NCBI RefSeq assembly: GCF_009834535.1
Contig: NC_045696.1
Location: 50,284,001-50,348,000 of the forward strand
DNA: 64,000 bases
Source of the DNA: Camelus ferus
Taxonomy: Eukaryota
Direction: 5' to 3'
Position numbers and translations under genes: made by a program. Position 1 is the stretch's first letter; every line of letters starts with the position of its first letter. The notes below the pieces were generated by a model. That model did no database searches, was not told where the DNA came from, and saw only the letters and a program-made list of their open reading frames with translations. This document shows positions 16,217 to 20,669 of the stretch, piece by piece.

Positions 16217-18106
16217 AAGCAGCCTTCGTTTGCCCTCAAAGGGCCCCAGCAGGTCGCTCACCGACTTCCTCGGACTCTGTGTGAAGTGTTTGGTGGGTTT
16301 CAGGTGCCCGTCCTGCTCGTGTTTCCCCACTTTTTTCTTCTTGTTCTTCTCTTTCTCCTGACGGCTCTTTTTCTCAGCCTTGTCCTTCTTCACTTGCTTT
16401 TCACTCTTAAGTAACTTGTCTGCTTTCTCACTCTTCACCTTTTTTTTCTTCTCCTTCTCGGCTTTCTCCAGCTTTTCGTGCTTTTTCGACTCCTTGGCCT
16501 TTTTCGGGGGAATGTGTCCCACTTGCAACTCCTCCTCCAGCTGAGAGGCGGTTGGCCGGCCGAGGTCATACTTATCCTCATACTCATTGCTGAGAATTTT
16601 GTCCTGGGCTTTCTTTTTGGGAGATTTCCCTTTCCCTGGCTTGTGCGGCCCTGGCACCACATTTGGGTCCCGGGGGCCCGTCTCGCGCCTGTCGGTGCGG
16701 TTGTCCCGGAAACGGCCCGCGCCAGCCCGGGTGCTGGGCTCCGAGATGGTGGTGGGAGGGGCAGCCGTGAAGCTCTCCAAGCTGGTGGCCTTGCTGGGCC
16801 TCCTGGTGGTCGGCGGCCTCTCCCTGGGCTGCTCCTTCCTGGGTGGAGGGTAGAGATTCTCGGAGGACGCGGGCCCCCTGCCAGTGGTCACCTCGGCCGT
16901 TGCGGGGGGCCTGTGGGAGTCTGAGGAAGGATGCACCCGGGGGGTCCAGGGCCTCTGAGTGGTTGGAAAGGGTGTGGTGGTGGTAGGTCTTGCAGCTCCA
17001 GTCACCACCCGAGAGGTGGCCCGAGTCACTGTTGTGACGGGAGTAGGAGGCATGGTGGTGGCCCGTGCGGTTGGAGGCTGTGGGGGAGGGGCCCCCATCG
17101 TGGCGGCCGGTTTTCTCATCACCTTCACCCGACTATCTCTGGTGGGTGGCACGTGCGCTCTCCTCTGCTCTTCTTTCCTCTTCTCGCTGCTCAGGCCTGG
17201 CTTTCCTGCTCCTCCACCATTGTTCCCCTCCTCCACCACCTGGCCCTCTACCCCCGAGGCCTTACATTTTTGCACAAAACCCTTCTGCCGGATCTTCTCT
17301 ATCCGGCGGATGGGGCCCTGGTCGATGATCTCGTACATGGCCTCCAGCCTGACGGGATAAGGGTAGCGCTCCTCCACCTGCAGCGTCTTCTTCAGCAGCA
17401 CCATGCCAAACTTGCCCTTCTCCAGCTTCAAGAAGCTCATCAGCTTGGGGATGAGGCTGGGGTCCAGGGGCTGCTCCAGGACCCGGCCCTCACTGGTGAT
17501 CCTCCGCACCTTGCCTCCTTCCTCGCCGGCTTGGTGGAACAGCACGATCTGCTGGATGTGCCTTTCCGCCAGCTCACAGTACACATCGTCCTTCAGCAAG
17601 CTCATCATGAGGCGGTAGTAGCCTTCGGAGGCATGAGGGGCCGAGATGACCCACACCCTGTTCTTACCCGCAAAGCTGGCAAGGATGTTGGGCGAGCTGG
17701 ACCCAGACGGGAAGCGCAGCATCCTTGATCGAGCTGAGGACCCCTCGTCTCGGACCATGTCGCGGGGAGAGCTCCGAGCTGCTGGCCTCTGCTCAGTTCT
17801 TACCCGGGCCCCATGGATGCCCCGCGAGGCTGGCGGAGCCGTTGACTGACCTACTCTCAACACCGGTATGCTCCTCCTTCTTGGGAGAGGCTGAAGGTTT
17901 GGTTCTTCCAGAGTGGTTCTCTGAATTCCCTGAGACCTCCCCGTGTGCCTCAGAAGCCGAGCTGGCCTTCTGTTGACGGGGGAAACCAGAGGCACTTTCC
18001 GCCCCCCGTGGCTCCCTCTATTCATGGCCTGAGATGGGGGTTCTGATCCGCACACCAGCCACAATGCCAACAGCATGGTAAAACTGGGTCCCATTCTCCA
18101 TGTCAT
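16217..18106 (-). CDS. CCDC80: CCDC80 coding part of exon 2 (630 codons): signal peptide, first thioredoxin-like/DUF4174 repeat, Thr/Pro-rich region, Lys/Glu-rich coiled coil, start of second repeat
   Basis: Translation MTWRMGPSFTMLLALWLVCGSEP...ASFAGKNRVWVISAPHASEGYYRLMMSLLKDDVYCELAERHIQQIVLFH...FEGKRRLL is recognisable CCDC80. Acceptor ccccaaAG|TGGACTGCACAATG (exon starts at 18117). Donor CTT|gtaagt (intron starts at 16216), phase 0. Confidence 0.97.
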
Positions 18107-18555
18107 TGTGCAGTCCACTTTGGGGAGGCAGCAAGGTCAAAAGATAGAAAGGGGAGGACGGGGGGAAAAAGAAGAAGAAAGAAAGAAAGAAAGAAAATCA
18201 CTTAATTGCAAACAGAGCTGGGCATTATCTTTTTCTCTATCTTGGCCAAGGGGAGGGGGAAGGGGTGGTTAGAGAAGAAGGAGGGAGGTCAGGGAATGGA
18301 AAATAGGATGATATCCTGTTGCTTTTGAGTCCCTGTAATTTGTCAGTGCTTAGCAGAGACGGAAAACCCAACTCAGTTTTTAAGCAGAAAACCCAACTCA
18401 GTTCCCCATTCAGCGTGCTTGCACTGTTTCAACTGACTGATGCTCCAGAGAAAATGCACACTGAGCAATTAATTATGACAACATTCTGATTTCGTTTCTT
18501 TACATAAGCAACAAAGAAACAAACACAGCAAAGACAGGCAAGGTTACACACTTAC

Positions 18556-19514
18556 ATTGTGGCTCATGGAGATGGAATGCAGAGGGTTTAAAAATCAATC
18601 TGAAGTGTGCTCCCAGGACAGTTCCTAGATGAAGTACTTTTCCTCCCAACTCTCTTTCTCCTTTTCCAGGCTGGGCGATACAAAGGGGTGTGCTGCAGCT
18701 CCGGCTCCCAAAGCCACACACAGACCACCGCCTGTCCGGACCCGTGGGCTGAGCCTTCTTTTCTTTCTAGCTGTGCCTTTTTACCTTCTTGACAAGTAGG
18801 ATGAGGTGAAAGGAGCTGTCCTTTTAAGTCTTTGCATCTCCATTTGTCTGCAGCTTCTACTCAGGCTGGTGTGTCTGTGTGTGCCAATCCCCCCGGCCGA
18901 CAGCACTGGACGCCCCTTAAAGTGGAGCCCCAGCTGTTTCTGTATCTCGCTCTTTCTTTCCAGTTCCAGGATCCTTCTTATCACGCTTTCCCCCACAGTC
19001 TGGCTTAGTCCCTTTGTTTCCAAGCAAAAGCACTGGGATTAATCTGTTTTCCAGGCTGAGGGAAAACACAGGAATGTGATGTTAAAAAAGGACTTTTTTT
19101 TTCTTTTCCTGCGCTTCTCTCCTCCCTTTATTTCTCCCCACCTTTTTCTCTCCTCTTTTCCTTCTCCTTTTTCTTCTTCCTCTTGCCTGGATTCAGTCCC
19201 AGAAATGCCAGGACAACCTCAGTTTTGATCCAAACCAAACTCAAACAACAGCAGCCACTGGAAATCAACGAAACTTCACTAAGAATTTAACAGATCAGCA
19301 AAACACCACCTCCTTCCCATTTCAGCACGGTGAGCGGTGAGCCCAGAATGGGGGTGGGGTGGGGAAGAGGGGCTGTTCCTTGGGGGTGGGGGAAGAGTTT
19401 TGAAACACTGCACATCATCATAAATCAATTTAGAACAGGATGGCTGAGGACTTAACCCCTTCCCTACTGAGTCATCAGGAGACTGCCTCTTCCAGTCTGT
19501 ATTCACACTGCACT
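18556..19514 (-). other. CCDC80: CCDC80 non-coding exon 1 (long 5' UTR); 5' end inferred
   Basis: Consensus donor AAT|gtaagt (plus-strand acttac 18550-18555), 438 nt from the exon 2 acceptor. 5' end placed ~30 nt downstream of the TATA box. No obvious interspersed repeat in the interval. Confidence 0.7.
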
Positions 19515-19536
19515 TTGGAAAAGGAAAATTCTCGGG

Positions 19537-19544
19537 TTTTTATA
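19537..19544 (-). promoter_or_regulatory. TATA box of CCDC80 promoter
   Basis: Minus strand gaTATAAAAAcccg, correctly oriented ~1 kb upstream of the exon 1 donor. An AP-1 heptamer lies at 19468-19474 just downstream. Confidence 0.7.
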
Positions 19545-20669
19545 TCTGACTGCTTGGTTTTCCTAGAGACAGATACTCATTTGGGTTAGGGTGCTTGGCT
19601 GTACATACACAGATAGTATATATATTTATAGTTCCGTGTGTATATTTTTATCTCTTTCTCCTGGCTTCATGCGTTTAGTTTGAGGTTGGAATAGCCCATG
19701 GAAAACATGACTGGGTTGTTTTTATTTTATGCTAATTGGGGATCGTATTACTGTCTTCTTGTTCCTGGTTTCTCCTTGGCATGAAAGGAAGCTGGTAAAA
19801 GGTTAGCAATGCAGGCAATGCTGCTTCTCCCCTGAGACTGTGGTCGCCATTATACAGGGAAAGGCCGTTATGATCTCCAGTTCTGGGCTCTGGCTGTAAG
19901 TGGTAGGCTAAGGGCTTCCTCAGAGGGCATGAGTGCATGTGCATGAGTGTGTGTGTGTGTGCGCGTGCGTGCATGCGTTGCAACATCTTGCTCTCCAGAG
20001 GCTTCAGGTGTCCAGAAGGCTTTAGGAAATCCTTAGAAGTAGCCTGTCAGTTTTCAAAGGAACGACTGAGGCAGCTCTTTGCCTTCACCTCCTGGATCTG
20101 CCACGAGGATTCAGCTTTTACTGGGGATGGAAAGTACCTTGGGTTATGCAGATATATCTTCCAGCCTCTCCAAGACATTTAATCAGTATTAACTGCCACA
20201 GATAGTGATAAGCCAGGGTTCTCAGAAGGCTCTTAGCAAGCTCGGCCATGTTAACAGCTACCCTCGCTAGATAAAACCTGGTCCCCATGGTCCCCAGTTT
20301 GCTCCTTGTGATCAGCCCCATCTCTGACTGGTCATTTCCTTTTCCTTCACATCAGCTCCCAGCACTGAGTTGAACACCTGCAGGGGGTTGAATGTCAGGC
20401 TCTTAGTCCATAGCTTGAAGACCAAGGGGTGCCAAGAAGGAAGGCCCTCCTGTGGAGCCCTCTCAGACACTTGTGAGTACAAAACAAAGGTGGGCTGCAG
20501 GCAGAGATCCTCGGTCCACCAGAGTCAGAGAAGCTTTCCACTTTCCTGGGATTCACCTCTTAAGTTGATCAAATGCCTTGTGCTAAGTTGGACAGTCCCA
20601 GATGTGATTTCCTTTCTCACATCATAATGTGTTCCCCCCTCCTTTTGGCTTCTCCCTGCTAGTAACAAC

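Follow-up and report, generated by a model that had tools for sequence, protein, structure and literature searches.

When an open reading frame located upstream (uORF) ends on the very start codon of the gene that it precedes, are the ribosomes that translate it passed on to the gene or lost to it? We addressed this question in the 5' leader of CCDC80 (also URB, DRO1 or SSG1), a minus-strand gene within 64,000 nucleotides of the Camelus ferus genome (assembly GCF_009834535.1, contig NC_045696.1; this whole stretch is the window, and all leader coordinates are minus-strand positions in it). A preliminary description had reported a uORF starting at 18567-18565 whose TGA (18105-18103) shares two bases with the CCDC80 ATG (18106-18104), and our reading of the sequence bears this out. 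The uORF is real, is kept between this artiodactyl and human, is catalogued as translated in human and is of a known kind. By analogy with tested uORFs of its class, we consider it fairly probable that this 8-codon frame works as an overlapping uORF that is leaky and represses CCDC80 mildly.

A spliced uORF ending on the CCDC80 start codon

The upstream ATG lies 12 nucleotides (nt) 5' of a GTAAGT donor at 18555 (junction 18556|18555), and together with the first four uORF codons it forms the 3' end of exon 1 (18556..18567), a 12-nt block as in human. Intron 1 (18118..18555, 438 nt) begins at this donor, which with 7 of 9 bases is the top U1 match among all GT sites in 19600-18100, and carries near its 3' end a long run of pyrimidines, the branch-like sequence TTGAC (18140-18136) and an AAG at 18118 (acceptor 18118|18117); its human counterpart, of 410 nt, sits in the same place. 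Exon 2 supplies the remaining 15 nt (18103..18117), again a block of the same size in human, and these end in the TGA. Splice signals and human annotation agree on the junction 18556/18117, from which we infer its use in this species. After splicing, the uORF measures 27 nt (12 + 15 nt, 8 codons), and CCDC80 Met1 (18104..18106, acaATGa, with A at -3 and at +4) stands 23 nt downstream of the upstream AUG (uAUG). Since the frame opens at a leader AUG, differs from that of CCDC80 and stops at the main start, it is an out-of-frame overlapping uORF; were the TGA missing from the ATGA, it would continue for 27 more codons, to 18024-18022.

The sense strand reads atctccATG at the uAUG, which places a T at -3 and agrees with the weak context described before; set against the adequate context of Met1, this makes leaky scanning likely, as had been proposed. 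The uORF had also been said to exist only after removal of intron 1. This stands for the ATGA end, but in an unspliced transcript the uAUG would still open a 7-codon uORF that stops within the intron at 18544, so that only the ATGA end is made by splicing. Intron 1 is present in both human reference transcripts of CCDC80, and there is therefore no sign here of its regulated removal. When the ATGA was held fixed and exon 1 was resampled, 22.7% of 20,000 sequences yielded an open AUG frame ending there; the arrangement on its own does not exceed chance.

Human catalogues support the uORF. Ji et al. (2015) list five non-canonical ORFs for CCDC80 in human cells (PMC4739776, Suppl. file 1), among them NM_199511 792:818, typed as an overlapping uORF, whose two blocks measure 12 and 15 nt and flank an intron of 410 nt. 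Suppl. Data 5 of Yang et al. (2024) likewise holds ENST00000206423.8 806:833 as a 27-nt ATG overlapping uORF (ouORF), with which, in the cross-check columns, RiboTish and PRICE agree in full and RiboTricer at the stop only (PMC10908861). The human frame is known as catalogue rows, and the comparison is one of coordinates and block sizes rather than of nucleotides; gene, length, exon blocks, AUG start and coding-sequence-overlapping type are all shared. Because human CCDC80 has the same 27-nt ORF, called translated in ribosome profiling (Ribo-seq) tables of 2015 and 2024, the uORF is both real and already catalogued. Both calls come from RibORF and from the same laboratory.

In favour of the leaky, mildly repressive reading, CCDC80 is absent from the list of Ji et al. 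of uORFs translated more than three-fold over the main ORF (PMC4739776, supplementary lists). A search for mouse conservation of the uORF gave no match to Ccdc80 in the examined part of the PMC8216458 supplement, and the 8-codon uORF is absent from the supplements of PMC10032668, where the sole CCDC80 entry in 6 files is a different, 20-codon uORF. Matches to 'AUGA' in the text of PMC10193022 proved to be a label, AUG-a, rather than a stop/start overlap. No text discussing or testing the CCDC80 uORF was found in the literature, most subscription papers being outside the search, and a query on stop/start overlaps in uORFs of cellular genes brought up two reviews.

Conservation of the stop/start overlap

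Conservation was read from protein models rather than from orthologous DNA. An anchor retained 94 of the best 120 matches, those with a full N-terminus; the 26 that were dropped comprise partial models and two tenrec rows missed by the anchor, both with Thr at residue 2. Among the 94 orthologues, residue 2 is Thr in 56, Asn in 15, Met in 13 and Ile in 10. Since every one of these residues has a codon beginning with A, the ATGA is kept in 94/94, including bird, reptile and axolotl. On a FastTree tree with parsimony counts, placental changes from Thr2 number 0 at the first base (to Ala or Pro) and 7 at the second, compared with 22 and 8 in four other Thr columns on the same tree (Fisher p 6e-4). 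Restricting the counts to Ala versus Ile changes gives 0:4 for Thr2 and 22:4 for the other columns (p 0.003). This test is post hoc and concerns a single column. The residue 2 pattern hints that the uORF TGA is under selection, and residue 2 may also carry a protein-level or Kozak-level constraint of its own.

The uAUG itself has direct support from three lineages only: this artiodactyl, human and one horse model. Neutral identity between human and artiodactyls is near 75-80%, so one AUG would survive by chance about half the time. The horse model, P0007, reads MSHNDCT ahead of Met1, that is, an exon-1 uAUG joined in frame, and its first four residues are as in the window. Predicted horse and donkey protein models that read through the intron have K-E-D where the window has K-V-D, which would place a second AG in Equus two bases 3' of the intron-1 acceptor. 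As an observation in its own right, such an AG (window 18120-18115; P0007, P0008 and P0010) would make of the uORF an in-frame extension that adds 7 residues to the N-terminus of the protein; the window lacks it. Seven more read-through models have four residues from the K or Q codon that holds the acceptor to Met1, consistent with a fixed acceptor-Met1 spacing of 11 nt. A naked mole-rat model with an MSH start (P0076) was rejected as support for the uAUG, because its 11-residue extension equals in length those of three intron-read-through models and is probably intronic.

Ribosome fate at the overlap

In the interpretation that we favour, removal of intron 1 would complete the 8-codon uORF, and most scanning 40S subunits would pass its weak-context AUG and initiate at Met1, 23 nt on and with A at -3. 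The minority initiating at the uAUG would stop atop Met1 without initiator tRNA and mostly be lost to CCDC80 synthesis, while Met5 (8 nt past the uORF stop) and Met11 (26 nt past it) are probably too near for reloading with the eIF2 ternary complex. According to reviews, a ribosome translates either an overlapping uORF or its main ORF, the two being mutually exclusive, and leaky scanning is the way to the main ORF (PMC10275272, PMC5972666). Repression at CCDC80 is inferred from the uORF's class, of which SAPAP3 and Adipoq are members. In SAPAP3 (Dlgap3), uORF2 also ends in AUGA, its stop sharing two bases with the main AUG in a multi-uORF leader; it represses the full-length protein, which leaky scanning to the main AUG yields, and ribosomes restart at +277 and rarely at +67 nt (PMC3387777). 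Leaky scanning is likewise the likely route to Met1 in CCDC80. The two uORFs differ in length (23 codons versus 8) and in footing: for SAPAP3, repression and the +277 restart were shown by mutation, whereas for CCDC80 repression is presumed and no conserved restart site is evident. The overlapping uORF of mouse Adipoq resembles ours in its weak-context uAUG in exon 1, its stop in exon 2 and the secreted protein downstream, and there about 3-fold repression in reporters and resistance to stress were shown; it differs in having 44-49 codons and a long overlap rather than an AUGA junction (PMC10501164).

Several points weigh against this leaky, repressive role. One of the four cross-check programs, RiboCode, gave no call for the human ouORF (PMC10908861, supplementary table). 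The 8-codon uORF is missing from the mouse-conserved list of Ji et al. (PMC4739776), although that list is based on a BLASTP search, which may fail to pick up a peptide of only 8 residues. Footprints of the main ORF could inflate a translation call for a 27-nt frame that abuts the main start. Finally, the apparent constraint on +4 A exceeds what a simple repressor needs, and the position of the stop itself may matter.

A stop on a start codon also recalls caliciviruses and influenza B virus, in which a ribosome-binding site upstream of termination (TURBS) couples two ORFs. Applied here, a TURBS-like element would tether the terminating 40S subunit and let it restart on Met1, so that uORF translation feeds CCDC80. 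What TURBS coupling needs is a UGGGA that lies exposed, 40-90 nt upstream, together with a motif 2/2* helix; what reinitiation after a short uORF needs is distance (PMC10275272, PMC5972666). The AUGA overlap agrees with the TURBS spacing of stop and start (overlap or within about 14-20 nt), a UGGGA pentamer resembling TURBS motif 1 (18611..18615) precedes the stop of the uORF by 67 nt in spliced RNA, +4 A looks constrained, and similar proposals have been made for SLAMF1 and Gad (PMC5972666). However, UGGGA occurs in 27% of 51-nt windows of the leader (6% across the whole 64-kb window), and its UGG is predicted to be hairpin-paired in 4/4 folds, with an unpaired probability of at most 0.06 except for one value of 0.29. 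Folding revealed no convincing motif 2/2* helix, the best complement being 3-4 nt, and the region folded no better than shuffled sequences (z -0.55 to +0.84). Viral TURBS elements lie inside a long translated upstream ORF (PMC5972666, PMC10275272), whereas this UGGGA lies 44 nt 5' of the uAUG, upstream of the uORF and outside any AUG uORF. Since plain leaky scanning can reach Met1, coupling is also unnecessary, and we regard the proposed calicivirus-type termination-reinitiation as very improbable.

Even less can be said for a choice between Met1 and Met5, in which the uORF would divert initiation to Met5 and alter the signal peptide; we rate it as least credible of all. Met5 (18092..18094, agaATGg) does have a strong context and does precede the hydrophobic core, as previously described, and a start there would drop Arg4, the sole basic residue of the n-region. 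What had been overlooked is a strong-context, out-of-frame AUG (gacATGg) between the two, at 18101 and 5 nt past Met1, whose 27-codon ORF (18018..18101) would trap ribosomes leaking past Met1. This AUG needs a codon 2 ending in A and is therefore likely to vary among mammals. Besides lying only 8 nt past the uORF stop, Met5 is often lost: it is Met in 74/79 placental rows, with three losses on the FastTree tree, and in 3/15 non-placental rows, and it is absent from two uncounted tenrec rows and from 12/12 rows of reptiles, birds and axolotl. The Met1 and Met5 forms share one hydrophobic core, and both would probably lose the signal peptide to yield the same mature protein.

If ribosomes leaving the uORF skipped Met1 and resumed at Met28 (77 nt past the stop) or Met117 (344 nt past it), CCDC80 lacking its signal peptide would be made inside the cell. 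SAPAP3 offers an exact precedent, with its AUGA uORF2 and restart at +277 (PMC3387777), and the ATGA stop is the earliest end possible for the uORF, sparing the further 27 codons. Met117 (17758-17756) has a strong context, is Met in 91/94 orthologues and stands just before the first DUF4174 domain, and the discussion of one paper describes CCDC80 both as a secreted and as an intracellular protein, tying the intracellular one to JAK2 and ERK (PMC9297110). On the other side, the first in-frame Met beyond the signal peptide is not constant in place: it falls at position 28 in 34/80 and at position 117 in 32/80 placental rows and is scattered in non-placentals. Conservation of Met117 may be structural, because it belongs to a conserved M-x-x-D-E-G motif. 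Intracellular staining includes the endoplasmic reticulum and Golgi, the discussion in PMC9297110 explains shorter forms by cleavage, and N-terminal peptide evidence was not found. We consider this isoform switch improbable. The broader proposal that selection across tetrapods holds the ATGA stop, that ribosomes are re-used at Met28 or Met117 for an intracellular, JAK2/ERK-linked CCDC80 and that the Equus acceptor converts the uORF into an extension is similarly doubtful.

It is also possible, though unlikely, that the uORF is a passenger, with a uAUG that is rarely used, persists by sitting beside a splice donor and has no measurable effect on CCDC80. Such frames are common, for 4,679 human ouORFs have been catalogued, and about 23% of resampled leaders give one here. 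Roughly between one fifth and one quarter of genes have an A at +4. In these, TGA is the earliest stop open to one of the two overlapping frames, so that by default one would expect an ATGA end in several hundred human ouORFs. Across eukaryotes, overlapping ORFs account for about 14% of uAUGs (PMC7889888), and in human 35% of mRNAs combine a junction in the leader with a uAUG (PMC5961209). The weak uAUG context and its direct support in only three lineages fit a passenger too. Against it stand the two RibORF translation calls, the full match by two other programs and the pattern at residue 2, where all 94 orthologues have an A-first codon and changes run 0 to 7 against 22 to 8 elsewhere. We favour leaky, mild repression because TURBS coupling, a Met5 switch and the ATF4-like bypass considered below fit poorly and because SAPAP3 and Adipoq are the nearest tested cases.

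The remaining leader, the gene and its significance

The CCDC80 leader is about 800 nt long and holds several uORFs, of which the 8-codon overlapping one comes last; the preliminary description had this uORF right and overlooked the others. Three of the five human CCDC80 ORFs are matched in the window, and those of 162 and 39 nt have no counterpart there. A 20-codon non-overlapping uORF in strong context (18781..18843) is orthologous to a 63-nt uORF that is translated in human, with 18/20 identical residues and a distance from the exon end of 288 nt versus 296 nt in human. This 63-nt frame is the only CCDC80 uORF in the mouse-conserved list of Ji et al. (Ka/Ks 0.35; PMC4739776). It corresponds to human c3riboseqorf114, which a table in PMC10032668 labels 'primatomorpha - young'. 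Given its intact frame in an artiodactyl, the 18/20 shared residues and its entry in the mouse-conserved list, the uORF is probably older than this label. A 13-codon uORF in strong context (19279..19320), which begins about 30 nt from the presumed cap, corresponds by length and position only to the human 42-nt translated uORF NM_199511 29:70; the latter is not among the 5 CCDC80 rows of the 2024 table (PMC10908861). A TATA-like TATAAAAA at 19544-19537 lies about 190 nt 5' of position 19350 or so, the counterpart of the human annotated 5' end, and a transcription start near 19515 would bring in further uAUGs at 19475 and at 19421/19418/19415.

Main control of CCDC80 translation would probably come from the strong-context 13- and 20-codon uORFs followed by reinitiation, and the 20-codon uORF is probably the better candidate for the main control element of the leader. 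In NIH3T3 cells, knock-down of Denr lowers the translation efficiency of Ccdc80 (log2 -0.27, adjusted p 0.069, at a false discovery rate cut-off of <0.1), and overlapping uORFs are depleted among its targets (PMC6547434). The sensitivity of Ccdc80 to Denr, taken with this depletion, suggests that some of the ribosomes reaching Met1 have reinitiated after translating the upstream uORFs; the Denr result does not implicate the 8-codon uORF. Delayed reinitiation of the ATF4 type is similar in that a permissive uORF stands upstream of an inhibitory, overlapping one, and in its DENR sensitivity (PMC5972666). The upstream uORF has 20 codons in CCDC80 and 3 in ATF4. About 100 nt separate the overlapping uAUG from the main start in ATF4, whereas the gap in CCDC80 is only 23 nt and thus leaves little room for an ATF4-like, stress-dependent bypass.

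The identity of the gene rests on codons 1-202 (17501..18106), whose identity to named CCDC80 proteins reaches 90% among the best 120 of 427 matches. They encode a signal-peptide-like hydrophobic core, with scores above 2 for 9-residue windows beginning at residues 9-12, the in-frame Met11, Met28 and Met117, and a DUF4174 domain that begins at residue 142. In the otherwise variable linker before this domain, Met117 and the D-E-G that follows are 97-99% conserved among the 94 orthologues. A quick IQ-TREE tree placed the window's CCDC80 inside cetartiodactyls (SH-aLRT 93) but not with the rows of pig, ruminants, whales or hippo, a position that by exclusion would suit a camelid. An Rfam scan of 17900-19700 returned 1 match only, with a score far under the gathering score. 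The DUF4174 part (residues 139-182) showed 39-41% identity to two metagenome contigs (L001:1408-1524 and L002:1601-1717) among 192 stretches scanned. Since the similarity is confined to this part, both were rejected as CCDC80 leaders, and they probably encode microbial DUF4174 proteins.

The CCDC80 uORF is one among thousands of overlapping uORFs and already a row in human Ribo-seq catalogues. As we read it, it would slightly restrain the output of a matrix protein that is secreted and for which tumour-suppressor and adipokine roles have been reported. Its importance would be greater if the apparent selection on +4 A is selection on the stop codon: CCDC80 would then offer a short, clean test of what becomes of mammalian ribosomes that stop on a start codon, and such selection could account for secreted and intracellular CCDC80 arising from one mRNA.

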